This document shows positions 1-16,698 of a DNA stretch of 64,000 bases, piece by piece (position 1 is the first letter of the stretch; each line of letters starts with the position of its first letter). The translations under genes were made by a program, and so were the position numbers. The notes below the pieces were generated by a model. That model was not told where the DNA came from and searched no databases. It was given only the letters and a program-made list of their open reading frames with translations. Source of the stretch: Nitrospiraceae bacterium (lineage in GTDB: Bacteria; Nitrospirota; Nitrospiria; Nitrospirales; UBA2166); contig PBSN01000007.1 of assembly GCA_002726235.1 (NCBI GenBank), positions 1-64,000 on the forward strand, in the 5' to 3' direction.

Positions 1-213
1 CAGGAGCAATCCTCCTGAGAGGGCGTGAGCCTGAGCATATTCCAGGGTCTCCACATGATCGTAAATTGAGATCGAGAGCACCTTTGTTTTTCCTGGGATG
101 CTTCCTCCTACCATCAACACTACTCCGAACTCACCGAGGGTATGTGCGAATCCTAAGACTGTTGCTGTGATGTATCCACGCAATGCCAACGGCAGATGCG
201 CGGAGCATACCAT
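1..213 (-). pseudogene. modB: C-terminal fragment of molybdate ABC transporter permease (5'-truncated; runs off the window start)
   Basis: Manual translation gives [65 protein letters not shown], the ModB C-terminal signature. An in-frame TAA lies at 243-241 and no ModB-like sequence is visible upstream. Confidence 0.8.
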
Positions 214-953
214 CTGACCGCGACGAGTACCAGAATCCAGTTAGCGTAAGCAATATAAGCGACGATAATACCACGAACCTGTTGTGAGGGATGCTGATGC
301 CAGAAGAACCGTTGTCGATGCATACGAGATCTTGAATTTGCGATATGTGGCGATATAGATACATAAGCGGATCAAAATTGATACATGGTTGCTTCAGCAG
401 GGTTGTGGTGAGCATCAAAAGATCGTGATAAAACACAACGTAGCACACGTAATCTTGGGTGGCATTGGTATTGCTTTAGCACTGTTCTGGATTAGAAAGC
501 TGGATGTCATTATGTTGGAGTTGTACTAATTGCAACGTCAGGCCCGTTCAACGTGCGATATCACCCCTCCTGGATTCACCTCCCGTCTAATATCTGTGCT
601 AGATAGGGCGCGGCGTGCGATTGTGCAACTCCAACATAATGACATCCATGAGGTTGGACTTGGATGAGCGAGGTCAAGTCAAGTAGTGAAGGCGACGACT
701 CAGAAAGAATTGGGTTTGGGTGTCTGGGGCGATCAGCGGTGTCAGCAGTCCTGTTTTTTTCCTTCATGGCGAAACTAGGCTGGAGCAGATTTTGATCTTC
801 TAACGAGTCTTCATTGGCGTAGCGATGATATTTGAAACTGAGCTGACAGGGAGGCTGATCCGCAAAGGGTTTCTGTCTCCTGTACTGCCTATGAAGGTGC
901 GCAATCCCCTTCCCCCGTAGATCCTCTCGAACTGCATTGCGCGTGAATAGCCC

Positions 954-1466
954 TCAGTCCTCGTTTGCTATGAGTCGTCGCTTCAGAATCCACATTTCGT
1001 ACAGCGGAAGAGTGGACATCAGTACAAAGCTACTAATCATGAAGAAATCCCCCAAAAGCAAGGTGAGCGCAAAGACTTCAGAAACGTACAGGATCAACCA
1101 GGGAGAAAGAAGATCGAGGCCGACGCCTGTGAATGACATATAAGCCATGGTAATCTTGAGCCATCTGGGCGCCATAGTGAGGAAAAAAATATGGACGATG
1201 ATGAGGAAGACGATGGGCATTGTAAACAGGTGAAAGTGGGTGATTTCGGCTAATTCATGAAACGATTTTGGTTCACCGAAGGTGGCATCAGATCCGAGGT
1301 AGTGGGTGATGACGCCGTCATAGGACAACCCGTTCATCGTATAGGCCCAGTAGAGGGTGAGCGCAAATCCGATACCAACGATGCTGACGAAGAAGGTATA
1401 GACCAAGCGAATTTGGCGATCAGTATCCAGCAGCCTGAAGCGAGTGTTAAAGTTGCGCATCTTCAA
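954..1466 (-). CDS. Conserved ~4-TM membrane protein with His-rich motif (possible heme/metal-binding partner of the flavinylated protein)
   Basis: 170 aa; hydrophobic helices; EITHFHLF and IIVHIF histidines; 4-bp overlap with the FMN-binding gene. Confidence 0.7.
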   Translation of the reverse strand: MKMRNFNTRFRLLDTDRQIRLVYTFFVSIVGIGFALTLYWAYTMNGLSYDGVITHYLGSDATFGEPKSFHELAEITHFHLFTMPIVFLIIVHIFFLTMAPRWLKITMAYMSFTGVGLDLLSPWLILYVSEVFALTLLLGDFFMISSFVLMSTLPLYEMWILKRRLIANED

Positions 1467-2161
1467 TTTCCAAATAATCGATTAAAAAATCCCCGAGACG
1501 TTTTCTTCTTGTGTTCAATGGCGCCACATGGCGTTCCCTGCGGATTCAAGTAGAGTTCCTCGGTCAACACCAACGCCCGTTTTACCCCAGCGCTTGCCGA
1601 CCGGACTGACATCGTTGCCCCAGTGATGTTAATAATGTCCCGATTAATTCTGATCGGATCGTCTGATTGTTTGCCTTTGTATTGGTACATAAACCGGGGC
1701 TTGCGAATATCGGCACCACGGCTCTCTCGATAGATGAGCATCTCTACCTGGGAGACTTTGCCGGAAGGTGTGATCCCTACCATGTAAGTCATCGGGCGGT
1801 ACTTCCCAATGGTGTTTTGAATGGATGTGTATCCATCAATGGTGCCGTCTGTTTCACCGATAAAAAACTCAAAACTCGTTTCTGGGAATTTCCAGCCGAT
1901 GCGGCGCTCAATACAGGATTTTTGCTCAGGGGTAATCTTCCTGCTTTCCGCTTGAATAGTCTTGGATTGGGGGAGGAGCAATTTTAATGCTTCGTCTTCG
2001 GTTAGGTAGACGACTTCCTTCCCGATTTCTTGGGTTGTGAGCCACCGTCCGAGCTCTTCATCAAAGATTCGGTCGCGTATTTCCGCTCCATAGGATTGTG
2101 GTATTGCTTGGGTAGATAGGAGGAGGATCACGGCGATGATAGTGAACAGTGGGTGAGACAT
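1463..2161 (-). CDS. Exported FMN-binding domain protein (ApbE flavinylation substrate, RnfG/NosR FMN_bind family)
   Basis: Signal peptide from MSHPLF (start trimmed from 2296); DIINITGATMS contains the [S/T]GAT flavinylation motif; YRESRG motif. Confidence 0.85.
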   Translation of the reverse strand: MSHPLFTIIAVILLLSTQAIPQSYGAEIRDRIFDEELGRWLTTQEIGKEVVYLTEDEALKLLLPQSKTIQAESRKITPEQKSCIERRIGWKFPETSFEFFIGETDGTIDGYTSIQNTIGKYRPMTYMVGITPSGKVSQVEMLIYRESRGADIRKPRFMYQYKGKQSDDPIRINRDIINITGATMSVRSASAGVKRALVLTEELYLNPQGTPCGAIEHKKKTSRGFFNRLFGN

Positions 2162-2300
2162 TATATGGTTCGACAGTCTCGTTTTTTCCGGCGATTGGCA
2201 ATGCGTGAGAGCACGTGATGTTTGACTGCAGGTAACGCCGGTGTATGAAGCCAGCGTAGAGAGAGAGGTGTTGCCATGGGGATAACCCACACGCACCGTG

Positions 2301-2762
2301 TTAGATGGGATGGCATCCGTGTTTTTTGAGGCGTTGCTGGATGGTGTTCAGGATTCGACGTTCAACGTGGGGCGATCCATCGACCGGGAACCACCGCAGT
2401 GCTTTCACTCCGCTGAGGGGATGTTCTTGTCGAACGTGAATAACGCGGATGGTCGATACATCGTGATCATCAATGATTTTTACGAATAGACTGGAGCGTT
2501 CTTGCGTAAGTTTTCGCCCAAACGCTCCGACGCCTTGCTTCGACATGCCTTTTTCCCAATCGGTCTCGAGGACACCGGAGGATTTGTCGGCCGTGATCAG
2601 CGTGGCGCGTTCGAGTACCATGAGGCTCTCGTCCCACACCGTGTCGTACTGACAGCGAACGGTCGAGGTTTGCCCTCCGGAGAGACTGGCGCAACCAATG
2701 AGTAGGCTCGGGAGAATTATGGTGCTGGCGAATCGAAACAATGAATAGCTTCTGCTCATCAT
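2301..2762 (-). CDS. Lipoprotein, possibly BamC/DUF3576-like helix-grip fold
   Basis: Lipobox LLIGC; ADKSSGVLETDW motif. Confidence 0.65.
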   Translation of the reverse strand: MMSRSYSLFRFASTIILPSLLIGCASLSGGQTSTVRCQYDTVWDESLMVLERATLITADKSSGVLETDWEKGMSKQGVGAFGRKLTQERSSLFVKIIDDHDVSTIRVIHVRQEHPLSGVKALRWFPVDGSPHVERRILNTIQQRLKKHGCHPI

Positions 2763-2783
2763 CTTGTCTTCTGGTGTATTGTG

Positions 2784-4133
2784 TCAGAAGTACGTCGCGA
2801 CGGAAAGGACAATTCCATCGTTCATGACGTCTCGTCCGGTAATGCGGTTGGGCTCGAAATTGTACTGGTATTCAAATTTGAACACGGTATCCTCTGTTGG
2901 CCGGAAATTGATTCCTGGAGTAATCCGAAATACATCGCCTTCCAGTCCCGGAGTATCGAGGTTCGTGTTCACATCGTCAACCCGAAAAACTCCCGTAAAA
3001 ATGGAATCATCACTAAAATATTTTGGGGCCAGTTGTTGGATGAACGTCGGCATAAAGTGATAGTTGAATTGTCCATACCAGCCGAACATGCGTTCGGGGA
3101 GTCCGATGAACCGGCCATCGAGATCTCTGTCATTACCTTTAATTGTGGTATAAGCCGCCTCGCCTAAAAATTCCCACGGTCCCCGCATAAAGGTCCAGTC
3201 CAGGGCGCCGATAGTCAAGGGGCGTTTTGACTCAGGGTCGATCTTTGCATGATAGCCTGATACACCGAGTTCGACGCCTAGGATTGGGCTATAGGCCAAT
3301 CGGCCGACGAGAGCTTGGTTGTTATTGTTGTCCAGATTCAGACCAACGTCTGTGGTTTGCCAGCGAGCGCCAGCCAGCCCTCCGGCATCGGTGATTCGTG
3401 GAGTGCCATCCTTGGAAAATCCATTCATGCCTTGCGTTATATAGACCTCGTAATCTAGCTTGGAGAGTCGGGTGGGATAGAAGGTTCCAAAAACTCCTAC
3501 TCCAGGCTCACGCAGTACGCCGGGAATGACCCTGAGAGTTACTTCTGGGCGTTGTGTGAGATCGTTGATGGGAGAATCGTGGACCAGATTGAATTTGCCG
3601 ACCGGAAGGAGTATGACTCCGGCACGGAAATTGATCCACTCCGCAAAGGAGTGGTCGATGACCGCAAATTCCAGTTCTGCTTCGCCGATGCCATGTTCAA
3701 CTTCGAGTTCGGCAGCCATGCGGGTGTTTTCTGTGACATCAGAATAGATAAAGGGCACAAAACGAGTTTGATCAAAGCTAGCGTTTGGATTTCGGCGAGC
3801 ATTAGTGGGACCCTTTAGGTTGGCATATTCGAGGTCCATATACCCGCCAATTACTGCGCGGGGGTTGCTGTAGCCGGGTCTTGCATAGATGAGACCGCCA
3901 CTGCCGCCGTAGCGTAAGCCTGCTGCCTGGGCTTTGCGTTTTTGTTGTTGGTCTTCTAGGTCATGGTCGGCCAGCTCATGTTGTAGTAATTCATCGCTGA
4001 GCTTCTCGAGTTTTTTAATGCGCTCCTCAAGTGATAGTTCTTTTTCATCTTCAGCACCGACTGTTGGGGCAAATCCAAACATTAATAGTGCTGTCAGGAT
4101 CGCGATGGTGCATGATGTGCGCCTATGTTTCAC
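2784..4133 (-). CDS. Outer-membrane porin (OprO/P-like beta-barrel) with N-terminal coiled coil
   Basis: Signal peptide; LEERIKKLEK coiled coil; ELEVEHG..ELEFAVID and GKFNLVHD motifs; amphipathic strands; C-terminal ATYF. Confidence 0.85.
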   Translation of the reverse strand: MKHRRTSCTIAILTALLMFGFAPTVGAEDEKELSLEERIKKLEKLSDELLQHELADHDLEDQQQKRKAQAAGLRYGGSGGLIYARPGYSNPRAVIGGYMDLEYANLKGPTNARRNPNASFDQTRFVPFIYSDVTENTRMAAELEVEHGIGEAELEFAVIDHSFAEWINFRAGVILLPVGKFNLVHDSPINDLTQRPEVTLRVIPGVLREPGVGVFGTFYPTRLSKLDYEVYITQGMNGFSKDGTPRITDAGGLAGARWQTTDVGLNLDNNNNQALVGRLAYSPILGVELGVSGYHAKIDPESKRPLTIGALDWTFMRGPWEFLGEAAYTTIKGNDRDLDGRFIGLPERMFGWYGQFNYHFMPTFIQQLAPKYFSDDSIFTGVFRVDDVNTNLDTPGLEGDVFRITPGINFRPTEDTVFKFEYQYNFEPNRITGRDVMNDGIVLSVATYF

Positions 4134-4241
4134 AATAGCCTCCTCGTAAACAATATTCAGTAATCAGTGCTAAGGTCTAAGTAAGACAGTAAAAGTGCAG
4201 GTATGCATAATCTGGTGCGTAGTATTTTCGGCATTGTTTTC

Positions 4242-5870
4242 TTACTGTTGGCTGATTGGGGTGCTCTTCCGAGAGTCTTCACGCGTTCCACAATAAGAAA
4301 ACAATGACAATGTTGAAAACCACGGTTCCACATATCTGGAACGTCTGAACGTCGTGAGATAGTCGAAACAGTAGTATTTCGAGAGTTTCTGTCCCAGCTT
4401 TGAACTGAACAGCACGGTGCCTTGGAATTCGGCTGCACGCACCACGGCAGCAACCTCATTCAATCCGCGTGCGCGCGCGACATCAAATTCCGGCGCATGA
4501 TAGGCGAACAGTCGTTGGGTCTCCCAGGTAAACACGCTGGTCTCTTCGGGATCAAAGTGGGTTTTGACATGTTCGACAAATGCACTTTGTGGAGGCATTG
4601 TCTCGGCGTAGGCCTTGACCAGGGGGAAGGTGATCAGGCTTGAAAAGATAACTGCCAGAGTGCCAATTGCGGGAGCAACTAATTTCAGCTTGGTATTGCC
4701 CCACTGGAACATCAAAACACCGATAGTCACGCCAGCCAGTGGGTAGAGAAAGAGGATAGGCGGAAGCGCATGGCGTGGGCGTTCCGGGTTTTGACCGATG
4801 AGGATCCATACTAGGTATGGTGCGATCAGTGCACCAACACTCAGCATCGCCGGACGTATTGGCTTGTGAAGCATTGCCCACAACAAGAGGAGACAAAAAC
4901 TGATTGAGAAAGGCACTCTCCATATGTTTTGTGGTGCTTCCGGCCAATATCCTCCAAGCGAAAACGCCCAGATTCCCCACCACCATGTCATGTACCGGCC
5001 CAACCCGATCTCGTCCGAAAAGACTGTGCCTCCCCAGCGGGTGAAGTGTCCGGTACTAAAGTGAATACTTGACTGAATCAATTCTGCCGATCCGGTGTGG
5101 AGGATAAGTGGGAGGATCCATACGCAAGTCCCTATTCCAAGGCCTCCACATCCCCAGAGTGCCAATTCCTTGAAACGGGTTGGCCGTTGTATGAGTATGA
5201 TGAGGGCACACCCTAGGACAAACGGCCAGTAACTCAATCGTGTTCCAAGAACTAGGCCCATCAATGCTCCTGTAGTGCCAACCCACCACAAGGAGGAAGA
5301 TCGTTTGGCGCTGGGGTAGAGTGCGTAGGTCAGTGTAAGGGCGACCCAGGGGAGGAGGGAGCACCCAAGCGCATCGCTGAGAGGTTTTTCGGCTTGTAGC
5401 CATAGGCCGGGACTCAGGAGATATAAGCTGACTGCGGTCACTCCAGCCCAGAGCACAATTCCCGACGTGGCATCATTTAAATAAGGGGAAAGGGAAGACT
5501 TTGTTGCATAACAGGAACGATCGTTCTCATTTGGTGGGGGAGGAGGGGTGATGCACCGCTTAGTCCAGTGCGAGGCGAGTAAGGCGATTGGAATCACTGC
5601 GAGTGTGCTGAAAACGATGCCAGGGAGAATCAAGGCGGTGGTGTCCTGCATGACGGTGGGTCGGATCGCCCATTGGAAGCTTTTTGCCAACGCGATGTAA
5701 ACTGGATAGCCTGGGAGGTGTGGTTGATGTTTTGCAAGATCAAACTCATGGAGCGCGAGAGCAAAGTCTACAGCGTCCCAACCTTCCAGATAGTGGCCTC
5801 GGTATAACCAGCGAAGGGTCCCTCCTGCCACAACCAAGCACAACAAAAATGATGTATATGTCCGTCTCAT
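4242..5870 (-). CDS. Polytopic membrane protein, GT-C fold (PMT/ArnT/DUF2723-like glycosyltransferase)
   Basis: ~11-13 TM segments; acidic first external loop WDAVDFALAL..HQPHLPGYP; RHALP motif; soluble C-terminal domain. Confidence 0.7.
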   Translation of the reverse strand: MRRTYTSFLLCLVVAGGTLRWLYRGHYLEGWDAVDFALALHEFDLAKHQPHLPGYPVYIALAKSFQWAIRPTVMQDTTALILPGIVFSTLAVIPIALLASHWTKRCITPPPPPNENDRSCYATKSSLSPYLNDATSGIVLWAGVTAVSLYLLSPGLWLQAEKPLSDALGCSLLPWVALTLTYALYPSAKRSSSLWWVGTTGALMGLVLGTRLSYWPFVLGCALIILIQRPTRFKELALWGCGGLGIGTCVWILPLILHTGSAELIQSSIHFSTGHFTRWGGTVFSDEIGLGRYMTWWWGIWAFSLGGYWPEAPQNIWRVPFSISFCLLLLWAMLHKPIRPAMLSVGALIAPYLVWILIGQNPERPRHALPPILFLYPLAGVTIGVLMFQWGNTKLKLVAPAIGTLAVIFSSLITFPLVKAYAETMPPQSAFVEHVKTHFDPEETSVFTWETQRLFAYHAPEFDVARARGLNEVAAVVRAAEFQGTVLFSSKLGQKLSKYYCFDYLTTFRRSRYVEPWFSTLSLFSYCGTREDSRKSTPISQQ

Positions 5871-5910
5871 AGGTTCTCGTGTGAAATTTAGTGCATGTCG
5901 TTGAGCTTAC

Positions 5911-6672
5911 TTAGTAGGCGTATCCACCTCCGGTTGCTTCTTCCGTTGGCGGCAGGGGCACTCCTCCTCCTGTTCCTCCTTGACTACTGCCGATGGTCTT
6001 GAAGTCGCCGAGGAGAAAGCCGCCTGTCACGACTACTGGGTCTGTTCCAAATACTGATCCAGAACGCTCGTGTGTTGGCGAGATATCTGATCGCATTGCA
6101 ATTCCGGGAGAAATTGCCGATTGGTTGGAGCTTCCGGCCTGGGCGGGAGCAGTGATGGTGACTTTCGCATCGTACCCTGCCTCGGAGGCTTTCAGTGTGT
6201 CAACTAAAGCGATATTTCTCGCGTAATGGAATCCTTCAGCAATACCCACGTGCGGAACAAGGGTTGTATCGAGAGATTTGCCCGTATCGCGATTTGTTAG
6301 TTTGAGGTTGACGTTTAGGTAGGGAACAAATTCGCCTTCAGCTTTGCCACCAAGAACAGCGCCAGAATACCGGATTTGTGCTTCAAAATGTATGTCGGCT
6401 GCTGTTTTTGGGGTAAGGGGTCCCCCTACTGGTTCAGCTGGTTCAAGAATCATGTCTGGGGGAGCTACTTCTAAGGTGATGGTCATATTGCCGCTAGATG
6501 CCGGCGCGTCTTCTACTAGGACCAGCTCGCCTGTAAAGTTTGGAACGGTTTCAACTGCAGGGGGGACATTACTGTCGCAACCTATTAACAGACTGAGAAT
6601 TCCAATCAAGCCCATTACCCGCACAAGCTGGCCTGCATATTTGTTCGAAGATGGTCTATGAGTCAGTATCAT
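5911..6672 (-). CDS. P19/Tp34/FetP-family periplasmic iron-transport lipoprotein
   Basis: RBS GAGGAG before MILTHR; lipobox LLIGC; motifs DIHFEAQI, GEFVPYL, LVPHVGIAEGFHYARNI match P19 DIHLEADI / WIPYL / PMVAxDGPHYGAN. Confidence 0.8.
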   Translation of the reverse strand: MILTHRPSSNKYAGQLVRVMGLIGILSLLIGCDSNVPPAVETVPNFTGELVLVEDAPASSGNMTITLEVAPPDMILEPAEPVGGPLTPKTAADIHFEAQIRYSGAVLGGKAEGEFVPYLNVNLKLTNRDTGKSLDTTLVPHVGIAEGFHYARNIALVDTLKASEAGYDAKVTITAPAQAGSSNQSAISPGIAMRSDISPTHERSGSVFGTDPVVVTGGFLLGDFKTIGSSQGGTGGGVPLPPTEEATGGGYAY

Positions 6673-6700
6673 TGTTTTTTCTCCTCGCTTCAGCTTGGGA

Positions 6701-8269
6701 TCATGGAATAGTCGTTGGGTTGCCACGGCGGGTAGCAGTTAGGATATTGGCAAATGCTGAACTAAGACGCTGCATGAAGTCTTGTGCCTGCGTTTGCGTG
6801 AAAATGGCCTGTTCTCGGTCGTCAATTGTTGTGGCATCAAAGTTTGGAGCAAGGTAATTGATATTACTGAAGAATGCCCTTGCTTCGGCGCGGGCTTTTC
6901 CAAATGCTTCGAGATCACCAGGGGCTTTCCCTCGCATACTGACGATTTCGTGGTAGACGGCGAGATAAAAGATTTGGGTCAGGCGAGTTTCGATAATACT
7001 GATGTGAGTCTGAATACCCGTTCCACCGCTCGCGATGGTGCTTGCCCCAGCTAAAAAGGCATTATCAATACTGTCTACCAGATCACAGTCGATATTGGCG
7101 GGAGTTCCAAACTCCGCCCCTTCGCAATTGCCCTCTCTGCTCGTCGCGGTTCCTCGGATAGCTTGCCAGAATGCCCAGGCCTCGTCCCAATTATGACCGG
7201 CACCTGAGATGGCGTCGATTTCCCCGGCAGGAACTTTTTCAATAACCTCATCAAATTCATGAAGCAGATTAAGGTAAAACATCCGTTGCGCACCCTTTTC
7301 GGCCCATTCGCCACATTCCATGGGAAAGATGGTGCCATTGACGTTGCAGTCGTTTCCGATTGGACGCTGGGCTAACGCATTTGCGACGTTATCTTCTGCT
7401 GAGGCTAATACAGCTGCCGTAAGGCCACGACTTGCTGCGTAGCGGCTCGGATCTTCGTATTTTATGAATGAGGTTTTGAGGTTTTCGCCAAATCCAGTAT
7501 CGGAGCCATACAGTATGCTCGCGGTCGCAAAATCTGGGAGTGCAGCATTCATTGTTTCGAAATTCGAGACAAGCGCTTGCTGTTTGTCAACGTTCCCTAT
7601 GGGCATTGTGGTGGCGGGTGGAACGCCAGTGGGTGCTATGCTCCCTGAACTTCCACTGGGAGTTTGAGGAACATTTCCTGAGCTGCCAAATGAGGTTACG
7701 GTGGTTAATATGGGGACTCCTCCAGTATCACGGAAGAGTGCAGATGGAGGTACGGCATCATAGTGAACTGCTAGAACGTTGTCTGAAAACATCGTGACTT
7801 CTAGGAGGTACTGATCGTTGAAGGGATTGCCGAGTGGATCAGATGAAGGAAGTGCCACGTTTGAACCATAGCTCCATCCCGCATCATTTCCGAGTGTAGG
7901 AACGAGATCAAACGCGAGGATTCCGGCTCCTGGATTCGAGCGATTTATAATCTGTACACGCATTCGCTGATACGGAATGAAGTCCCCGGCATTGCGAGCG
8001 CCAAACACTTGGGCTCGTTCCGCAAAGAGGCGTACTTGGAAATACATATCTGCCAGATTGTTGGAGACTTGTCCGTTAACAATAGCTGGAACGAGGGTGG
8101 TTACCTCGGCGATTTCAACCACTGCCTCAATCGTTTCTCCAAACAACTCCGCTTCGCCAAGTTCAATTGCAGAAACTGAGGGGGCCCGGGGATCTTTGGG
8201 GGCTTGTGCAAACGTGTGTGATGCCATGACAGTACATAGTAGGATCATGACGATTTGTATTTGTCTCAT
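6701..8269 (-). CDS. Exported fusion: degenerate P19-like domain + S/T/P linker + FEA1/DUF4856-like helical iron-binding domain
   Basis: Signal peptide; GDFIPYQ and LVPTLGNDAGWSYGSNVAL align with the adjacent P19 paralog; C-terminal half has KGAQRMFYLNLLHEFDE and GHNWDEAWAFW. Confidence 0.65.
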   Translation of the reverse strand: MRQIQIVMILLCTVMASHTFAQAPKDPRAPSVSAIELGEAELFGETIEAVVEIAEVTTLVPAIVNGQVSNNLADMYFQVRLFAERAQVFGARNAGDFIPYQRMRVQIINRSNPGAGILAFDLVPTLGNDAGWSYGSNVALPSSDPLGNPFNDQYLLEVTMFSDNVLAVHYDAVPPSALFRDTGGVPILTTVTSFGSSGNVPQTPSGSSGSIAPTGVPPATTMPIGNVDKQQALVSNFETMNAALPDFATASILYGSDTGFGENLKTSFIKYEDPSRYAASRGLTAAVLASAEDNVANALAQRPIGNDCNVNGTIFPMECGEWAEKGAQRMFYLNLLHEFDEVIEKVPAGEIDAISGAGHNWDEAWAFWQAIRGTATSREGNCEGAEFGTPANIDCDLVDSIDNAFLAGASTIASGGTGIQTHISIIETRLTQIFYLAVYHEIVSMRGKAPGDLEAFGKARAEARAFFSNINYLAPNFDATTIDDREQAIFTQTQAQDFMQRLSSAFANILTATRRGNPTTIP

Positions 8270-8451
8270 GCTATGAATGTCCTTTCTTTATTGACGCGAA
8301 AAACAATAAAATTTCGTCAGTTAGAATGTCTTCATGCTCTTGTCTTCCACGTCACTTCCAATATGGCTTTCTGGGGGATTTGTGTGTCATCCACAGATGG
8401 CATTGTCCGTATCTTCCTGTACACCCATTCCCGACTACGTGCGTTGATTCT

Positions 8452-9879
8452 CTATGTCGCAGTAAGCGCATCGATTTCAAGCAATGCCTTCTCGGTGCGA
8501 ATTGATTGGATATGTTTGAGGTTTCGTGAGCCTTGCATAATTTGATGTGCTGCTTCGATGCCCATTTCCATTGCCGTATCGAGGAAAATATACCTAAAGA
8601 TCCCCTGCCGTCCGCCGGTTAATACGTTCTCCATTTTTGCAACTTCTGCAAGGAGAGTATCCCTATCATGTTGATATCCAAGATGGTAGATGGGGTATCC
8701 GTGTTCGACCCACACGCTATGATGGTCGAGGGCAACCGAGTCAATGTTATATCCGAGTGATCGAAGCTCAAGGGACATTTCCTGAAATAGGGTGTTGCCA
8801 TCGGCCTCCCAGATTTTGTCACCGACTGAGCAGGGAATTTCCAGCATGATCGATGTTTTGCCTTGCGGCACCATTTCAGAGCTACGGCGTTTAGGTTCCT
8901 GGATGCGGCTCATCTTGTACTGGGGTTCCGCGATATACATCCAGGTGTTCTCGCTAAAATCTGGGATGTCGAGTGGGATGTTCAAAAAGCGAAGTGCGCG
9001 AGACCGCAGATTGCCAATCGCCGTTTCCACACCATTAGTTGATTGTGGAGCGATGTATCGTGCCAAGGCGGGCAGTGAAATTGTCGAAAATACCCATGAA
9101 CATGGCAGGAGGTATTCCTGGCCATCAACGTGATAGCGTACAGCCTTCACCCGGTTCCCGACGACGTCGAGGCCGGTCACGTCTGCTCCAAGGTGGATTA
9201 TGCCGCCTTCACGGCACATTCGGGAGGCCATTCGATCAAATAACTGGCCCATGCCAAGCCGTGGATAATAGTATCGGCGGGCATAGGTCCGAATTGGAGA
9301 TCGCCGCAAGCCAATGAGTCGCAATGCGGCATCGCCAAGATTGAGGAGAGAAATGCGTTGTGCCGCCCAGTCTGATGAAATTTGGGTGGGGGGGATGCCC
9401 CAGAGCTTTTCCGTGTACGGGCCGAAGAAGCGATCATAGAGCGGGCGGCCAAATCTGGCGGTCACCCAGCCTTCAAAATGCGATTCGTCACGTGGAGAGA
9501 TGCGGCGACGGATAAGTTCGCCCGCATACCCCAGCAAGGCCTTTAGGTTTAATCCAAGACCGAGATTCTCGACCAGATCTGGCGCGGACAGTGGATAGGC
9601 AAATCGTTTTCCGGAGTGCATCACGACAGATTTGCGCTCGGAGACGAGCATGTCGGCTCCCATCAGGTCGAGAATTCGGCTTGTGAGTTCTTGGTTTTGT
9701 GAAAGAAAGCGGTGTCCTCCAAGATCAAAACGATATTCGCCAAATGTATTTGTTGCGCAGAGTCCGCCGGGACGCGGCTCTCGCTCAAGGACCACGACAT
9801 CCCATCCTTGAGCGGCCAATTCCCACGCACAACTTAAGCCACAGGGACCGCCACCCAGTATGACAATAGGGTCTTTCAT
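8452..9879 (-). CDS. FAD-dependent oxidoreductase (HemY/UDP-galactopyranose mutase-like family)
   Basis: GGGPCG dinucleotide-binding motif, DLGGHRF, YTEKLWG, DWAAQRI, GRQGIFRY. Start at MKDPIV overlaps the bfd stop. Confidence 0.85.
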   Translation of the reverse strand: MKDPIVILGGGPCGLSCAWELAAQGWDVVVLEREPRPGGLCATNTFGEYRFDLGGHRFLSQNQELTSRILDLMGADMLVSERKSVVMHSGKRFAYPLSAPDLVENLGLGLNLKALLGYAGELIRRRISPRDESHFEGWVTARFGRPLYDRFFGPYTEKLWGIPPTQISSDWAAQRISLLNLGDAALRLIGLRRSPIRTYARRYYYPRLGMGQLFDRMASRMCREGGIIHLGADVTGLDVVGNRVKAVRYHVDGQEYLLPCSWVFSTISLPALARYIAPQSTNGVETAIGNLRSRALRFLNIPLDIPDFSENTWMYIAEPQYKMSRIQEPKRRSSEMVPQGKTSIMLEIPCSVGDKIWEADGNTLFQEMSLELRSLGYNIDSVALDHHSVWVEHGYPIYHLGYQHDRDTLLAEVAKMENVLTGGRQGIFRYIFLDTAMEMGIEAAHQIMQGSRNLKHIQSIRTEKALLEIDALTAT

Positions 9880-10073
9880 CTGGTTTCCGTTTGGGTATGG
9901 GCAGTGCATTCTGCCGCGACCTGTATCAGATCCTCGATATTCTCAGCGCATCTCCCGCAGCAATCACGGTCGAGATCGAAAGCTGTGATAAGTGAATCGG
10001 GATCAGACCCGTGTTTTGACAATGCGCATTGCATCTTCCGGTCGGTGATTCCTTTACAGAGGCACAGATACAT
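9876..10073 (-). CDS. bfd: Bacterioferritin-associated [2Fe-2S] ferredoxin
   Basis: MYLCLCKGITD...CCGRC; RBS GGAGA at 10085-10081. Confidence 0.9.
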   Translation of the reverse strand: MYLCLCKGITDRKMQCALSKHGSDPDSLITAFDLDRDCCGRCAENIEDLIQVAAECTAHTQTETR

Positions 10074-10090
10074 GATGAAGTCTCCATATG

Positions 10091-10115
10091 GATAATGCTA
10101 ATGATTATGATTATC
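10091..10115. promoter_or_regulatory. Two overlapping Fur boxes
   Basis: GATAATGCTAATGATTATG (10091-10109) and GCTAATGATTATGATTATC (10097-10115) each match GATAATGATAATCATTATC at 16/19, offset by 6 bp. Confidence 0.85.
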
Positions 10116-10116
10116 A

Positions 10117-10145
10117 ATAATAGCTTTACGCGAAGGACTTGTCAA
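10117..10145 (-). promoter_or_regulatory. Sigma70 promoter of the bfd-led iron operon
   Basis: Minus strand TTGACA (10145-10140), 17-nt spacer, TATTAT (10122-10117). The predicted start site falls inside the Fur boxes. Confidence 0.8.
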
Positions 10146-10266
10146 ATCTATAATGATTCTGCCCGTATTGACTTATAGTTGGCACAATCACATGAGGCCA
10201 CCATGTTTTCATACTTAATAAATTGCGAGGTGGCGTGGCCAAATACGTAGTGTTGACGGGAGGGAT

Positions 10267-10743
10267 GTGATGAAAGCAAAAAAAGGTGTTGTTGAGTATC
10301 TCAATAAACTTTTGACCAATGAGTTGACCGCAATCAATCAATATTTTCTCCATGCCGAGATGTGTGAGAACTGGGGGTATGATCGGCTGTATCACAAAAT
10401 TCGAGCCGAATCCGTTGACGAAATGAAACATGCAGAGGATCTTATCGAACACATTTTGTACCTGGAAGGCGTTCCCAACGTACAACGCCTTAACACCATT
10501 ACCATTGGGCAGACGGTCTTGGAACAACTCAAACTTGACCTGAAGGTGGAACAGGGAGCGGTGATCCTTTTCAACGAAGCAATTGCTCACTGTGTCAAGG
10601 TTGGGGATAACACCACGCGTAACAAACTGGAAGACATGCTGGAGTCCGAAGAGGGACACGTCGATTTCATCGAGACCCAACTTGAAACTATCAAGCAAGT
10701 TGGCCTCCAAAATTACCTCAGCCAGCAAATTAAGAACGACTAG
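10267..10743 (+). CDS. bfr: Bacterioferritin
   Basis: NELTAINQYFLH, ESVDEMKHA (heme Met), ESEEGH ferroxidase motifs. Confidence 0.97.
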   Translation: MMKAKKGVVEYLNKLLTNELTAINQYFLHAEMCENWGYDRLYHKIRAESVDEMKHAEDLIEHILYLEGVPNVQRLNTITIGQTVLEQLKLDLKVEQGAVILFNEAIAHCVKVGDNTTRNKLEDMLESEEGHVDFIETQLETIKQVGLQNYLSQQIKND

Positions 10744-11093
10744 TTTGCTGACCGAGGTCGGTCTAGCACAACACTATTCACGCGCTTGAGAAGTTTCGCT
10801 TTGCCCGCATTATCGGACAGCAGAATTTCGTTGATCACGTTGTTGGTTGATGGAAATTTACTGGTCGATGGGACAGCAGGTCTTGCAAAAGCCCGGATCA
10901 TCAAAGTTCTGAGTAATGCATGCTGGGGTTGATTTCGGCAGATCTAGCCGGAATGGAGATTTACCGTCCACAAGGCGGGTGCTAGTGATACAAAAAAGAG
11001 TTGTTCGTTGCACGGCACGAAGTGTCGGGCGCACACACGGCCGACACTCTCGAACCGCTGTGGTCAAGTAGGTTGGTGGAGGAGTAAGCAATT

Positions 11094-11113
11094 GCCACAA
11101 GAATACTTGTGGC
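11094..11113. terminator. Hairpin between convergent bfr and the lipoprotein pair
   Basis: Perfect 8-bp stem GCCACAAG-AATA-CTTGTGGC; no clear U-tract. Confidence 0.35.
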
Positions 11114-11139
11114 CCACGACTATTACAGCTCGCGAATTA

Positions 11140-11457
11140 TTACTCGTATTTGATGGCCAATCCGCGAGCGTCTGCTTGGCAGTGCAAGAGGAATGCCCAC
11201 CAACAGTTGTTGGCAATTTCTACATCAACCACGTCATCTGCACCCATTTCTTTCGCGGTCGCTGTAAGCTTGTTTAAAACGGCACCCTTGGAAATATCGG
11301 CAAATGGCATTGACCAGCCCGACACCTCAACTGTTCCTAGGACTTTATGCGGTTTTGTGATTGACTTTGAGTCGACACTCATCTGGGTCAAGGGGTAGGA
11401 ACATCCAACAAGAAATGCACTCGCGCAAATAATTGCAAGGAATTTTACGTTCATCAT
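11140..11457 (-). CDS. Small lipoprotein, YbjQ/TRL-like fold
   Basis: RBS GGAGG; lipobox LVGC; AKEMGADDVVDV..NNCWW..C.A.A.G.AIKYE. Confidence 0.7.
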   Translation of the reverse strand: MMNVKFLAIICASAFLVGCSYPLTQMSVDSKSITKPHKVLGTVEVSGWSMPFADISKGAVLNKLTATAKEMGADDVVDVEIANNCWWAFLLHCQADARGLAIKYE

Positions 11458-11489
11458 GTATGCCTCCATATCGTTTGATCGTCTCGGCT

Positions 11490-11846
11490 TTACTGAGGAT
11501 TCGCCGCATCCTCATATTTCACAGCTACGCCGAGACCGTCGGCCCAGCATCTGATTACCTCTCCGATAGCGGGAACCACCGACCAATAACAGTTATTCTT
11601 TACCCTGATATCTAGAATGTCATCTGCTCCGAGAACATCTGCTTTTGTTCGCAGCGTGTGCATCATTTTTCCAACTGCAATCTCGCCAAAAAAAGCCCAC
11701 TCGGAGGCTTCAACGGTTTGCTGCCATTTGATTGGCTTATTCACAGTCTCGGAGGTAACAATTCCCATGGGTGCCATTGAATAGGAACAGGAAATCGTCG
11801 ACAAAGACAAAAACACCAAGCAACCGAATACATGCCATCGTGTCAT
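11490..11846 (-). CDS. Small lipoprotein, paralog of the downstream gene
   Basis: RBS AAGGAG; lipobox TISC; ADVLGADDILDI..NNCYW..C.ADGLGVAVKYE. Confidence 0.7.
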   Translation of the reverse strand: MTRWHVFGCLVFLSLSTISCSYSMAPMGIVTSETVNKPIKWQQTVEASEWAFFGEIAVGKMMHTLRTKADVLGADDILDIRVKNNCYWSVVPAIGEVIRCWADGLGVAVKYEDAANPQ

Positions 11847-12038
11847 AGGGTGGCTCCTTCCCTTGAAATATATCGGAGTAACTCTCAAGCGTCTTTCGCC
11901 TTCACATATGCATGAATTGTGTCATGATCTATCATGGTTCGTTGTTCATTGTAGCACAGCAACATTGCAGAAAAGAAAAGAAGCCATCGCCATTATCTAG
12001 CTGTCCGTTATTTTCGTTCCGTTAGATAGATCAATGGT

Positions 12039-12377
12039 TCAGAGTGATTTGGCTGGTGTTGCGCTCGCATTGGTTGTAGCGAGAGGAAGGTCTTTCTCTG
12101 ATGGCGAAAGTTCCGTCGCGTGTTTTTGTGCCTGTTCATTGGCATCTTTTAATAAGCGAGCTTCTGTGTTTATGACAAAATCAACTTCATCCTGAACGAC
12201 TTCATGGATTGCTAGGCAGGTTTTTTTTGCAAACGGTTTCTGGGATATCGGTGCAGCACCATGTAGCAACTGCTTGGCTCGTTGGACTGCAATGATGACA
12301 ATCCGAAAACGCGAGTCAATCTTAGTGTTGCTGTGATGATCGAGTAATGAAAGAACCCCCATTGTCACTCCTTTCAC
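12039..12377 (-). CDS. rpoZ: RNA polymerase omega subunit
   Basis: IDSRFRIVIIAVQRAKQL; lies downstream of gmk. Confidence 0.9.
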   Translation of the reverse strand: MKGVTMGVLSLLDHHSNTKIDSRFRIVIIAVQRAKQLLHGAAPISQKPFAKKTCLAIHEVVQDEVDFVINTEARLLKDANEQAQKHATELSPSEKDLPLATTNASATPAKSL

Positions 12378-13027
12378 TGTGCATGATTCTGCCCATCGAG
12401 GCAGGATTTGTCGACATACGCGGTTTTCATTCGCTCCGCGGTGATCACGGCTTCCAATTCTTTCAGTGTTTGATTCAAGTCGTTGTTCACGGCGATATAG
12501 GTATATTGGCGGAAGTGTTGCATTTCATCGCGTGCGCGGTTCAATCGCATCTGAATCGATTCTTGGGAGTCTAGACCTCGGGTTTGAAGGCGCGTTTGGA
12601 GTTCATCCCATGATGGCGGAAGGAGATAAATGAACACTCCTTTCTGGAATGTTTTCTTGAGTTGCATGGCTCCCTGCTCATCGATATCCAGTAAGAGGTC
12701 AATTCCCTCAGTCAACGTCTGTGCTGTCGCCGTCCGGTGCGTTCCATATAAATGACCATAAACCTCTGCCCATTCGAGAAATTCTTTGGCATCGATCATT
12801 TTCTGAAACGTGTCTTTGCTGACGAAGGCATAATCTTGTCCGTCAACCTCACCTGATCGGTGAGGTCGGGTGGTGCACGAAATAGAAAATCGCAAACGTG
12901 GTATGCGGGTAACAAGTTGATTGCACAATGATGTCTTACCGGCGCCGGAGGGGCCAGATATTACGAACAGAATGCCTTGGCGTTGACCAAGAGACACGGC
13001 GTCTTCAATCGTCGGTATATTGTTCAC
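12374..13027 (-). CDS. gmk: Guanylate kinase
   Basis: SGPSGAGKT, SCTTRPHR, EVDGQDY, YGT motifs. Confidence 0.97.
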   Translation of the reverse strand: MNNIPTIEDAVSLGQRQGILFVISGPSGAGKTSLCNQLVTRIPRLRFSISCTTRPHRSGEVDGQDYAFVSKDTFQKMIDAKEFLEWAEVYGHLYGTHRTATAQTLTEGIDLLLDIDEQGAMQLKKTFQKGVFIYLLPPSWDELQTRLQTRGLDSQESIQMRLNRARDEMQHFRQYTYIAVNNDLNQTLKELEAVITAERMKTAYVDKSCLDGQNHAQ

Positions 13028-13049
13028 GTGTTGGATGATGTTTGGAACG

Positions 13050-13928
13050 TTACTCGAGGTTGTGGATTTGCTCTCGAATTTTCTCCAGCCTGCCTTTTAT
13101 TGCCACGGTCCGTTGTGAGACATCAAGGTCATTGCCCTTTGTGCCCATCGTATTCACTTCTCGATTGAGTTCCTGCATCAGGAAATTGAGTGTTTTCCCA
13201 ACCTCCGTGCCCGTCTCTATAAGGGCCTGACACTGATCCAGATGGCTGTCCGTTCGGACGAGTTCCTCACTTATATCACATCGTGTGGCAAACAAGGCAA
13301 TTTCCTGAGAGAGGCGTGCGGCATCCACCGTGTAGTCCTTCATGAGGGGCGTAATTTTTTTGTGTAGACGGTTGGTGTAGTGTTGAATGATACGAGGTGC
13401 ACGCCGCTTGATTGCAGTGATGTCCCGTCGTATGCCTCGAAGGTGACTCAGTATATCTCGTGTTAACGCGCGACCTTCCCGATGTCTCATGAGGTCAAGT
13501 TCTTCCAATGCACTGCGTAGTACTCGATCCATGATCTCCATTACTACCTCAGTAGGTATGGGAGGAGGCGCGATGGTCGTGAGTTCTCGAAAGTTCGCCA
13601 ATAAGCTGATGTCGATGTCTCCGGTTAAACAAAGGTCACGTTGCACTTTCTTGAGCGCACAGATGTATTGACGGGCGATATCTTCATCAATACGAATGTG
13701 TTGTTGCTGTCTCGATCCGTTACGAATGGAGATAGACACATCAACCTTTCCACGTGAGACATGCTGACCGATGATTCGCTTTATTTTGGCCTCATGCGGA
13801 GAAAGTGTGCTGGGGAGATGGGTTGTGATCTCGCAAAACCTGTGATTGGTAGATCTAATCTCCACGACCACGCGGTGACCGTAGACGACACGTTCCTTCC
13901 GGCTGTATCCTGTCATGCTTTTAATCAT
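13050..13928 (-). CDS. yicC: YicC/YloC family endoribonuclease
   Basis: MIKSMTGY, EIRSTNHRF, DISEELVR, LNFLMQELNREVNT, IREQIHNLE. Confidence 0.95.
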   Translation of the reverse strand: MIKSMTGYSRKERVVYGHRVVVEIRSTNHRFCEITTHLPSTLSPHEAKIKRIIGQHVSRGKVDVSISIRNGSRQQQHIRIDEDIARQYICALKKVQRDLCLTGDIDISLLANFRELTTIAPPPIPTEVVMEIMDRVLRSALEELDLMRHREGRALTRDILSHLRGIRRDITAIKRRAPRIIQHYTNRLHKKITPLMKDYTVDAARLSQEIALFATRCDISEELVRTDSHLDQCQALIETGTEVGKTLNFLMQELNREVNTMGTKGNDLDVSQRTVAIKGRLEKIREQIHNLE

Positions 13929-15637
13929 CGGGTGGTACTCCCAGCGTAGCCCCATGATCGTTCTTGTGCAGGGGCACCCAAGACGTACGTCTGGAAATGT
14001 TCGTCGATCGCCTCAAGAAGTGGAGGCAGTGATGTGGGATTGAGCGCTGATATTGCAATGCCGGACAACCGGTGGGCTAAGACATCTCGCTGCGGTAAAG
14101 CAACACGATCCGACTTGTTCAGGACAAGAAGGCGTGGAATATGGGTGAGGGAAAGTTCGGACAAGACACTCGACACAACACGAAGTTGTTCGTCAAACGT
14201 TGGGCTACTGAGGTCGCACACGTGTAGAAGGAGGTCGGCATCACGCAGTTCGTCTAATGTTGTCTGAAATGCCCCCATAAGTCCTTTAGGAAGTTTTTGG
14301 ATAAACCCCACCGTATCTGTGAGAATCACTTCTTTTTCTGTCAACAGCCGCAATCGACGGCTTGCAGTGTCCAAGGTCGTAAAGACTTGATTGCTTGTTT
14401 CGACGTGATTGCGCGTCAAGGTGTTGAGGAGCGTCGATTTCCCCGCATTGGTATAGCCGATCAGCGCAACGATTGGATAGTTGTGGCGTACTCGGAGAGC
14501 TCGTTGTTGGTGGCGCTGTTTGACGAGTAGCTTCTGTTGGCGCTCGAGGTGAGCAATCCGATCTCGGATTCGGCGCCGATCAAGTTCGAGTGTGGTTTCC
14601 CCTGGTCCGCGACCACCAATTCCACCGGTCAATCGTGAAAGAGAGGTCGAGCGCTCCGCGAGACGCGGGAGTACATATCGAAGCTGGGCTAACTCGACTT
14701 GGAGTTTCCCCTCTCGAGAGTGAGCCCGTCTCGAAAAAATATCAAGGATCAATTGTGTGCGGTCAATGATCTTCATCTCGGTGATTTCGGAAATGGCTTT
14801 TGTCTGTGCTGGCGTTAGGTTTTGATCGAAAATCAGAAAATCTGCTCCGCGATGTAAGGCGTTGATGACAACATCTTTTAACTTTCCCTGCCCTAGTAGA
14901 TATTTGGGGTGAACTGTCTGGGGACGTTGGAGCACTGTGTCTAGAACAACAATGCCATCCGAATCCGCGAGTTCTTGAAGTTCGATGACCGATTCTTTCT
15001 GAATCGCACGATGCTTCTCAGACACACTGATTAATATGGCACGGTCGGAGCCATGTTCGACATGATGGTTCGATTTCGACCTGGAGAACTCTTCATCCAA
15101 GGAACGAAGAAATGTCGAAAGGTGGAGGTCGAGTGCGTGAAATGAGGTGGGTGCCCACACCTCATACACGCGGTGAGCAGGGTTTTGTGGAAGCACATGT
15201 GCCAGGTAGATCATGCCTGGTCTTCCCTCCGTATCGATTCCCAGGGCGGCAATCAGATCAAAACGAAGCATGGCAAGATCTGTCAAGTCATCTTGGCTCA
15301 GAGATTCGTTGCGTAGGTGGGTATGGATCATGCGAATGCCGCGCAGGGCGGTTCGGCCCAACCGATATCTCGAAAGGTTAGGGATGATCACCTCGCGTTC
15401 ATCTCCCACAAACACATCTTCAACGACACCACCTCGACTAATCAAAACACCAATTTGCCGTTTAATCTCGCGCGACAACTCGGTCAAGTAGGTCGCAAGC
15501 TCCACACTGATTACCTCGTGAGCAGAGACGCGTCGACGGTACGCTTTTTTTAGTCTGTGGAGATGGCTTGGCTTCAATCCACTAAGGTTGCCGTGTACAG
15601 TTGAAATTCTTCCTTCTCCTACGTAGTCATGGCACAT
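13925..15637 (-). CDS. hflX: Ribosome-splitting GTPase HflX with N-terminal extension
   Basis: GYTNAGKS, DTVGF, NKSD, GGIGGRGPGET; start uncertain. Confidence 0.95.
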   Translation of the reverse strand: MCHDYVGEGRISTVHGNLSGLKPSHLHRLKKAYRRRVSAHEVISVELATYLTELSREIKRQIGVLISRGGVVEDVFVGDEREVIIPNLSRYRLGRTALRGIRMIHTHLRNESLSQDDLTDLAMLRFDLIAALGIDTEGRPGMIYLAHVLPQNPAHRVYEVWAPTSFHALDLHLSTFLRSLDEEFSRSKSNHHVEHGSDRAILISVSEKHRAIQKESVIELQELADSDGIVVLDTVLQRPQTVHPKYLLGQGKLKDVVINALHRGADFLIFDQNLTPAQTKAISEITEMKIIDRTQLILDIFSRRAHSREGKLQVELAQLRYVLPRLAERSTSLSRLTGGIGGRGPGETTLELDRRRIRDRIAHLERQQKLLVKQRHQQRALRVRHNYPIVALIGYTNAGKSTLLNTLTRNHVETSNQVFTTLDTASRRLRLLTEKEVILTDTVGFIQKLPKGLMGAFQTTLDELRDADLLLHVCDLSSPTFDEQLRVVSSVLSELSLTHIPRLLVLNKSDRVALPQRDVLAHRLSGIAISALNPTSLPPLLEAIDEHFQTYVLGAPAQERSWGYAGSTTR

Positions 15638-16698
15638 GTTGAGGTTTCAGTTGTTGGCTCGCATGCGATCATTGTATCTGGTCTTTTCCGAAGTGGTTGC
15701 TTAGCAAACGGTTCGGTGTCGAGGGGAGCAAAATTTTTACGGGTGTAGGCGTTCCATCCTGCTGCGGCGATCATTGCACCGTTATCTGTACAGTAGCGCG
15801 GTTCTGGAAAATGAAGATGAAGGTGATGTGTGGCCGTGTGATCGTACATAGTCGTCCGGAGTAGCGAATTGGCCGCGACTCCGCCAACTACAACGATATC
15901 AGAAATGTCATAGCACACAGCCGCGTGGATTGTTTTCTGAATGAGTACCTCAACGATGGATGTTTGGTATCCGGCCGCAATGTCGGCTGAGGTCATATCA
16001 GAGTGATGTTCGCGTGGAGATTGTAAAAAATAGCGCAAAGCGGTTTTGATGCCGCTGAAACTAAAGTCAAACGACCGTTTTGATGGATATGGGAGTGAAA
16101 ATGGAACCTTGCGAGGGTCTCCAGATTGAGCGAGTTTGTCAATCAACGGTCCTCCGGGATAGCCGAGTCCTAGCATCTTTGCGCCTTTATCGAAGGCTTC
16201 GCCTGCCGCGTCATCGAGGGTGCGACCGAGCTGTTCATAATGGTCGTGGGATTGCACTGCATAAAGGTTGGTATGGCCGCCAGACACGAGAAGTGCGATA
16301 TGCGGAAAAGGGATTTGAGTTGTGCCAAGTCGAGCCGAAGCAAGATGGCCTTCCAGATGGTGAACTCCAATCAGGGGGATGTTAGCCGAGTAAGCTAATG
16401 CTTTTCCAAATGAGAGGCCAACGAGGAGTGCGCCAATCAATCCTGGACCTTGGGTGACGGCAATGGCATGAAGGTGATTGAGTCGGACATCGGCTTGGGC
16501 AATTGCTTCTCGAACCACACTGTCCACAACTTCAATGTGAACGCGGGATGCGTATTCTGGCACTACACCTCCATATGGGGCATGAACGTTTTCTTGAGTG
16601 TGAAGAACATCAGAGAGCACTTCATGCCCGTTTTTTACGACCGCAACGGCGGTGTCGTCGCACGAAGTTTCAATGCCTAGAATGAGCGTATCACCCAT
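15619..16698 (-). CDS. tsaD: tRNA N6-threonylcarbamoyltransferase
   Basis: LGIETSCDDT, HHLEGH, LVSGGHT, CTDNGAMIA. Confidence 0.97.
   Translation of the reverse strand: MGDTLILGIETSCDDTAVAVVKNGHEVLSDVLHTQENVHAPYGGVVPEYASRVHIEVVDSVVREAIAQADVRLNHLHAIAVTQGPGLIGALLVGLSFGKALAYSANIPLIGVHHLEGHLASARLGTTQIPFPHIALLVSGGHTNLYAVQSHDHYEQLGRTLDDAAGEAFDKGAKMLGLGYPGGPLIDKLAQSGDPRKVPFSLPYPSKRSFDFSFSGIKTALRYFLQSPREHHSDMTSADIAAGYQTSIVEVLIQKTIHAAVCYDISDIVVVGGVAANSLLRTTMYDHTATHHLHLHFPEPRYCTDNGAMIAAAGWNAYTRKNFAPLDTEPFAKQPLRKRPDTMIACEPTTETSTCAMTT

Follow-up and report, generated by a model that had tools for sequence, protein, structure and literature searches.

What are a membrane glycosyltransferase and a sugar-mutase-like flavoenzyme doing in an operon that otherwise looks built for iron? 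The question is raised by nine genes near one end of a 64,000-nucleotide stretch of DNA (the window; contig PBSN01000007.1, positions 1 to 64,000) from the assembly of a small marine Nitrospirales (G000; 1.87 Mb, 90.65% complete). A first-pass annotation had described these genes as a Fur-repressed iron-acquisition operon with an unusual parts list, and our analysis indicates that the operon is real, that it serves iron uptake and that it is probably under Fur control. On balance we favor a Fur-repressed envelope iron-acquisition operon composed of a common core and an acquired block, in which a glycosylation pair encoded by the block would likely find its acceptor within the iron-capture apparatus. 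The new part is the rare block, above all the glycosylation pair, which recurs with iron-capture genes in distant phyla. The features of the locus, in window coordinates, are as follows.

10267..10743, plus strand: bacterioferritin, divergent from the operon (TIGR00754, 190 bits, cut-off 126)
10117..10145, minus strand: sigma70-type promoter, TTGACA-17-TATTAT (11/12 consensus; elements identical in G004 and L015)
10091..10121, no strand assigned: overlapping Fur boxes (16/19 and 16/19; 17/19 on the minus strand) that cover the start site and the -10 element, kept in three congeners
9876..10073, minus strand: gene 1, bfd-like [2Fe-2S] ferredoxin (PF04324 E 8.6e-5, 23.3 and so below the cut-off of 26; Cys 4, 6, 39 and 42)
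8452..9879, minus strand: gene 2, cytoplasmic FAD enzyme, UDP-galactopyranose-mutase-like, PRK07208 family (PDB 4dsg; NF005547 above cut-off; conserved residues)
6701..8269, minus strand: gene 3, secreted fusion of a P19 fold and an FEA1-type helical domain (PF10634 and PF07692)
5911..6672, minus strand: gene 4, P19/FetP-like lipoprotein with LIGC lipobox (PF10634 E 3.7e-17; FetP alignment)
4242..5870, minus strand: gene 5, GT-C-fold membrane glycosyltransferase, QPHxPGY subfamily (structure model and ArnT match, see below; PF11028 TMEM260-like)
2784..4133, minus strand: gene 6, outer-membrane porin-like protein with C-terminal Phe (weak BBP2, E 0.011; weak Porin_O_P in a relative; recurrent in core loci)
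2301..2762, minus strand: gene 7, small lipoprotein with LIGC lipobox (weak DUF3576 / NlpB-like; recurrent in core loci)
1463..2161, minus strand: gene 8, exported FMN-bind protein with TGAT flavinylation motif (PF04205 above cut-off; longest ORF starts at 2296)
954..1460, minus strand: gene 9, small inner-membrane protein, Aq_1264_TM family (PF27139; invariant His75-x-His77)

Promoter and predicted Fur control

The open reading frames (ORFs), together with promoter and box scans, confirmed that nine co-oriented genes lie behind a promoter overlapped by Fur boxes. All nine occupy the minus strand between 954 and 10073 with intergenic gaps of -4 to 182 bp, the gap between the lipoprotein and FMN-bind genes being 139 bp with the ATG start at 2161. 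The promoter (10145-10117) scores highest among the 13 sites counted over 11.5 kb, a total that equals chance expectation (12.2 +/- 3.8). Fur-box matches of 16/19 lie at +10091 and +10097, and one of 17/19 reads on the minus strand from 10115, as scored against a 19-position consensus of the E. coli type. The 17/19 box is the sole site of that score in the assembly, and three composition-preserving block shuffles gave 0. It is kept upstream of bfd in congeners G004 and G001 and upstream of the porin gene in L015. The divergent bacterioferritin gene shares the operon's promoter region, and the genome carries a fur gene (G000:C4:139424-139846). On this sequence evidence the operon is probably Fur-controlled. 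Elsewhere in the genome, a gene cluster for a cytochrome bd-like subunit I / cytochrome c has its start overlapped by a 16/19 Fur-like box, at G000:C8:275771 (L063:2511-4460).

An Rfam search of window positions 1-16000 returned no match, and terminator-like sites occur at chance level (10 against 10.6). RNA contigs X1 and X2, from one sample of one study, hold short 99%-identical pieces in the FMN-bind, lipoprotein, porin, P19-FEA1, FAD and bacterioferritin genes, with none in the GT-C, P19-lipoprotein or gene 9 sequences and none spanning gene junctions; run X3 held no matching pieces. These contigs demonstrate neither expression level nor co-transcription of the operon, and they were not used as evidence.

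A common core and a rare block

The nine genes had been treated as one unit, a view that the neighborhood survey did not support: the porin, lipoprotein, FMN-bind and Aq_1264_TM genes make up a common core, another four belong to a rare block, and bfd keeps company with bfr. Searching Nitrospirota genomes with the FMN-bind protein yielded 40 core loci, some of them cut by contig ends. Within these, the porin gene is present in 38, the gene 9 homologue in 37, the lipoprotein in 34 and ApbE in 32, followed by FutC (24), FutB (21), FutA (17) and Fur (9). This confirms the conservation of the core. Its association with ApbE, FutB and Fur, along with the Fur box, the bfd/bfr pair and the P19 and FEA1 domains, supports the earlier proposal of iron acquisition with porin entry and periplasmic capture.

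Gene 8 bears the motif ITGATM, and the flavinylation motif [S/T]GA[S/T] occurs in 38 of 39 FMN-bind homologues. Gene 9 had no match in the main Pfam scan or NCBIfam and was assigned to PF27139 (Aq_1264_TM). The gene was found in 114 of 301 Nitrospirota genomes; His75 and His77 are invariant in 61 sequences, and H90 is kept in fewer than 90%. Its previous description as a His-containing protein with four transmembrane helices (4-TM) holds in that it is a small membrane protein with conserved histidines, but the helix number is not exactly confirmed because a simple hydropathy scan picked three. From these features we infer a mechanism for the core, set out below; no description of the core was found in the literature searched. 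About 20 of the 40 core loci (within L020-L052) also contain a Cys-rich ORF of ~74 amino acids, without a Pfam match, between apbE and the porin gene.

The four block genes sit between the bfd and porin genes. Of the 301 Nitrospirota genomes, three have PF10634, one has PF07692 and five match the GT-C profile, closely only in G000 and G261. G001 and G004 keep the whole block with its gene order unchanged (46-91% identity), and the GT-C gene is present at a contig end in G003. In gene 3, the N-terminal domain folds like P19 (Z 11.6, rmsd 4.0, 143 aligned) and the FEA1 half is strongly conserved, matching PF07692 over 36 residues (29.9, cut-off 25) and falling below the NF038033 cut-off (46.5 against 250). 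A structure search with the whole model gave no clear fold match for the FEA1 domain (best helical Z ~7), and the P19-FEA1 fusion has eight relatives in the protein database among 8,000 candidates scored.

Gene 4 aligns with FetP (E 3.7e-10). Relative to the P19 ligand set, which we take to be His-x-Glu, Met, Asp, His, His, gene 4 keeps three His positions, has His for Met and has its last (C-terminal) His replaced, and the P19 domain of gene 3 keeps only that last His, three of four ligands being lost in the window species. This complementarity suggests a putative heterodimer of the two proteins, although as a lead only, because it fails in G001. Both proteins contain Ser/Thr-rich linkers (residues ~186-210 in gene 3 and ~226-250 in gene 4). 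In another Nitrospirota family (G084 and G076; loci L078 and L079), P19 genes of the canonical kind, with no ligand missing, adjoin the gene of a 4Fe-4S membrane protein, accompanied in L079 by an OprB-type porin.

Could the block be a recent passenger, delivered behind a Fur promoter by an anammox-like donor, that is now in partial decay or works on a metal other than iron, for example copper or zinc? Its confinement to one genus within the 301 genomes and the ligand losses in gene 3 would fit such a history, as would the grouping of the window with an anammox-type locus (L131) in both gene trees (support 81 and 97). However, the block is intact and ordered in G001 and G004, its GT-C gene persists in G003, the FEA1 half is strongly conserved and the Fur box is kept, and we therefore consider a passenger block improbable.

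A recurring glycosylation pair

The FAD protein had been annotated as an oxidoreductase, but our analysis points to a sugar enzyme. Its best PDB match is UDP-galactopyranose mutase 4dsg (E 6.5e-18), which covers the full length (residues 4-465), and H56, W160, R175, R325, Y395, R424 and Y430 are kept in at least 90% of 43 aligned mutase-like partners, at positions that presumably play the roles of mutase active-site residues. On the strength of the full-length match and these conserved positions, a role as iron reductase was rejected. Because it is mutase-like and travels with the GT-C gene, the protein belongs to sugar chemistry rather than to iron redox.

The model of gene 5 (pLDDT 85) is led in structure comparison by ArnT (5f15, E 1.1e-7) and ALG12, and the top 27 listed fold matches are all GT-C. 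D32, the acidic residue after the first helix, is invariant in 34 relatives along with H51, H275 and R366. To place this protein in a wider context, a metagenome scan with a 14-sequence GT-C alignment confirmed 359 relatives, and the counts that follow refer to the best 80. A mutase-like gene is present in 50 of these loci, directly adjacent in 46. Other neighbors include DUF4856 lipoproteins (31), TonB-dependent receptors (27), relatives of the window porin (24), the secreted protein c7 (13), FEA1-type proteins (8), FutAB (4), FTR1 (3) and FMN-bind/ApbE fusions (3). A strict iron marker was found in 40 of the 80, and in 23 of the 37 loci of at least 10 kb. By profile comparison, the FEA1 domain of the window matches that of its anammox-type partner with 97% probability and DUF4856 with 75%. 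From these associations we infer a putative glycosylation module for iron starvation, linked with capture proteins of the FEA1 type.

The sugar-supply genes seem interchangeable, since GT2 occurs in 7 of the 80 loci and together with the mutase-like gene in none. This exchange, and the fact that the pair is kept whether the entry or import gene before it encodes a TonB receptor, a porin or FTR1, might suggest that the FEA1 and P19 proteins bind a product made or modified by the pair, either a small iron chelator or a periplasmic iron ligand on a lipid anchor. There is precedent for sugar on a chelator in IroB, which glucosylates enterobactin, but IroB is a soluble enzyme of another fold, and GT-C enzymes act on lipids, glycans or proteins. 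Moreover, no recurring chelator-synthesis genes were found among the annotated neighbor clusters, and we think such a product very unlikely.

The wider GT-C and FAD families are not generally iron-linked, because the distant GT-Cs of L172 and L173 adjoin pilus-assembly-like genes (their identity read from sequence) and the genome encodes a second PRK07208-type flavoprotein (G000:C1:19594-21978; L062:5595-7979) that is fused to a NeuB-like synthase domain. No GT-C relatives were found in viral contigs or phages, and the plasmid collection held two records. In L104, L119 and L125, a run of acyl-reductase-like, MMPL and other lipid-type genes is positioned downstream of the GT-C gene, with a Fur-like box in L104.

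Parallel loci in distant phyla

The anammox-type locus L131 holds homologues of six of the nine operon genes within 14 kb, with identities to the window of 38% for the porin, 49% for the FAD enzyme, 26% for GT-C, 27% for the FEA1 domain, 25% for the lipoprotein and 45% for the FMN-bind protein. Members of its GT-C cluster are named Ca. Brocadiaceae and Planctomycetes, with one Thermodesulfovibrionia. L123, L131, L132 and L146 share a near-palindromic motif upstream of the porin gene that resembles a variant Fur 7-1-7 box and is not significant against the E. coli consensus.

Similarly, the Bacillus nitratireducens plasmid NZ_CP047367 carries a 16/19 Fur box followed by genes for an FEA1-like lipoprotein, an epimerase, an LPG-synthase TM protein, a phosphatase-family protein and GT2, and a second 16/19 box followed by a c7-like gene, FTR1 and GT-C. 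The lipoprotein matches anammox-type FEA1 (E 1e-17), and its match to the window alignment is weak (24% probability). GT2 and flippase genes are linked with GT-C in 7 of the 80 relatives and in L169.

These loci also bear on the possibility that the operon serves iron uptake but that, under iron shortage, the target of the glycosylation pair is a lipid or a polymer of the cell surface (lipid A, LPS or teichoic acid), remodeled as ArnT-like enzymes would do, the pair being co-regulated with the capture proteins and not acting on them. ArnT is the best fold match of the GT-C protein, LAB_N stands beside GT2 in 6 of the 80 loci, and the Bacillus operon includes the LPG-synthase TM gene and a phosphodiesterase-family gene. 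In addition, a 17/19 Fur box directly precedes a run of GT-C, phosphatase-family and GT2 genes at L122:9961-13733, with neither transporter nor capture protein in view. However, the same GT-C subfamily serves monoderm Bacillus, which has no lipid A, as well as diderms; the partner that recurs across both is an FEA1-type or c7 secreted protein, and the GT-C gene is placed between capture and transport genes. Polymer remodeling is for us a somewhat unlikely explanation, and we continue to favor an acceptor within the iron-capture apparatus.

Several observations nonetheless weigh against that preference. No GT2 or flippase gene was found within the operon, and an unlinked GT2 and LAB_N pair does exist at G000:C8:130629-131611, with 49% and 56% identity to its counterparts from GT-C loci. 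ApbE was not found in the 90.65% complete G000 assembly. It is present, unlinked to the operon, in 4/4 congeners, and the genes that flank it there, ubiA and kefC, are likewise absent from G000, so that its absence points to an assembly gap. In congener L015 the same promoter stands directly before the porin gene, without bfr, bfd or the block and with the core kept, and therefore the block is not needed for the core. L015 is sister to the block-bearing genomes (bootstrap 100); a single gain of the block after the L015 split is the simplest reading, and loss in L015 may be the alternative. The P19 metal ligands differ among congeners.

The GT-C survey contributes further points of this kind. 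No iron, porin or c7 marker was seen in 19 of the 80 loci, 5 of which are at least 10 kb, and two-component genes flank 26. Of the 45 operon heads examined, only 2 had a significant canonical Fur box, both Bacillota-like. The locus counts are not independent, because the 80 are the best of 359 and collapse into 29 groups at 60% identity, of which 19 include a mutase-like gene and 27 an iron, porin or c7 marker. The match between DUF4856 and FEA1 is moderate (116 columns with a shared HxWDE motif), and one control pair reached 72% over 21 columns. Finally, c7 was considered as an FEA1 homologue and rejected, with a match probability of 0.35%.

Iron import in the genus

Which transporter, then, might receive the captured iron? 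Genes for FTR1, FeoB_C and ZIP were each found in 0 of 5 genus genomes (G000 and four congeners, one of them 98% complete). All five carry a fur-futB-futC run, with the FutB-like gene directly behind fur (split over two contigs in G002). The G000 copy (G000:C4:136634-139846; L058) lacks futA and has a 15/19 Fur-like box, and is followed by an MgtE transporter gene. With FTR1, FeoB and ZIP all undetected, FutBC is the probable importer. The futA gene is absent from the fur-futBC locus in 5/5 genomes, and a 30-32% identical FutA-like gene is located elsewhere in 4/5. We considered whether the P19 and FEA1 proteins replace a lost FutA and rejected the idea, as futA is missing there with or without the block and FutA-like genes exist elsewhere. 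A ferrous importer may also be present, since G000 and G001 contain a weak NRAMP-like gene (E 2e-8).

The route had further been proposed to be independent of TonB. That fits this operon, but it does not extend to the wider family, in which relatives of the GT-C pair lie behind TonB-dependent receptors in the 27 loci counted above. Of the two TonB receptors in G000 itself, one has B12-type surroundings and the other (G000:C14:19150-21220; L060:4153-6219) is broken by one TAG stop. ExbB/TolQ was not found in G000 or G004, which we read as incompleteness.

Within the window, beyond the bacterioferritin gene, the minus strand at 11140-11888 encodes two tandem paralogous small lipoproteins, 36% identical and without a clear family.

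A proposed mechanism

In seawater poor in iron, nitrite oxidizers and anammox bacteria must supply their heme and Fe-S enzymes with large amounts of the metal, and Bfd is established to mobilize iron from Bfr. Under iron shortage, Fur would leave the promoter and Bfd would draw on the neighboring bacterioferritin. Iron would enter through the porin, and the FEA1-type helical domain and the P19-like lipoprotein, judging from their families, would hold it in the periplasm. The Aq_1264 membrane protein might then hand electrons to the ApbE-flavinylated FMN protein, in what would be the direction of flow, freeing or reducing ferric iron, and import would probably proceed via the separately encoded, Fur-boxed FutBC ABC transporter. 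Meanwhile, the mutase would make a furanose nucleotide sugar, a GT2 encoded elsewhere would load it onto a polyprenyl carrier, and the GT-C enzyme would transfer it outside the inner membrane. As acceptor, a component of the iron-capture apparatus would be likeliest, above all the FEA1-type protein.

A broader and more speculative proposal, which we find possible yet doubtful, is that at least three phyla (Nitrospirota, Planctomycetota and Bacillota) have members sharing an undescribed iron-starvation module, in which one GT-C subfamily with exchangeable sugar-supply genes would glycosylate FEA1/phytotransferrin-like proteins, the sugar being needed for stability, anchoring or iron binding. 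In the genus studied here, the module would be joined to the core and to the P19 pair, possibly a heterodimer with one complementary copper site, as a permease-free system feeding a ferric ABC transporter.

The locus offers a parts list for possible iron acquisition in a genus without detected FTR1, FeoB or ZIP in five genomes. It also gives the GT-C/mutase pair a testable role, in a family whose GT-C members are in some cases named 'hypothetical', 'GT39' or 'nucleoporin-interacting protein' in UniRef, and links that family to DUF4856 and bacterial FEA1-like proteins; if true, glycosylation would be tied to iron capture. The module is also present in cultured Bacillus relatives, which makes it genetically testable. 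These data hint that sugar attachment is an unrecognized part of iron acquisition.

Comparison with known systems

No description of the combination was found in the literature searched, in agreement with the first-pass annotation, which had not recognized it as a characterized system. Nothing was found there on the GT-C/mutase pair in iron operons, with subscription journals and the large cluster table of PMC8238504, which may list such clusters, outside reach. The same searches gave no papers on aq_1264/PF27139 or DUF4856 and none on a Nitrospira/ApbE/porin combination.

The closest relatives are the P19/FetP-FTR1 systems (FetMP, Ftr1-P19), in which a single locus likewise encodes a periplasmic protein of P19 fold together with an FMN-bind protein and is controlled by Fur (as predicted here). 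Clusters of P19 and FTR1 with an FMN-bind gene are described in the available part of Meheust et al. 2021 (PMC8238504), in whose main text 'porin' and 'Nitrospir' have 0 occurrences, and FetP is summarized in the available part of PMC7285068 as an Fe2+ binder and Fe3+ reductase. In contrast, here FTR1 was found in none of the five genus genomes, the P19 ligands are altered, P19 is fused to FEA1, and a porin, the Aq_1264 protein, a mutase-like enzyme and GT-C are added.

The core resembles flavinylation systems of the PepSY-like, MsrQ-like and DUF4405/FezC types (PMC8238504, PMC11334425), of which Huang et al. (PMC11334425, in the part available) describe the PepSY, MsrQ and DUF4405 membrane cytochromes: all combine ApbE, an exported TGAT protein and a small His-bearing membrane protein beside iron genes. 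It differs in its membrane partner, PF27139, which has one His-x-His pair and is a family not named in the available text of either paper. Similarly, the window protein shares a secreted Fea1 domain with algal FEA1/ISIP2a, where Fea1 proteins are iron-loaded and iron-regulated and Ot-Fea1 is induced by iron deficiency (PMC4855317, available part). Unlike those, it is bacterial, single-domain and P19-fused, with the short PF07692 match and the sub-cut-off NF038033 score given above.

For the glycosylation pair, the FAD enzyme is likened to eukaryotic-type UDP-galactopyranose mutases (4dsg, 3ute) by its full-length match, GGH loop and kept Arg, Tyr and Trp active-site positions, whereas its identity to them is low and it scores 37 bits against a cut-off of 304 for the bacterial glf family (TIGR00031), so that the assignment stays at mutase-like. 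With three-component glycosylation systems as commonly defined, and with ArnT-type enzymes, the operon has in common a GT-C transferase, which in some relatives adjoins both a GT2 and, as candidate flippase, LAB_N or LPG-synthase TM. What would set it apart from both is that a mutase-like flavoenzyme here takes the place of the linked GT2 and flippase, and that it does so in an iron-uptake setting.

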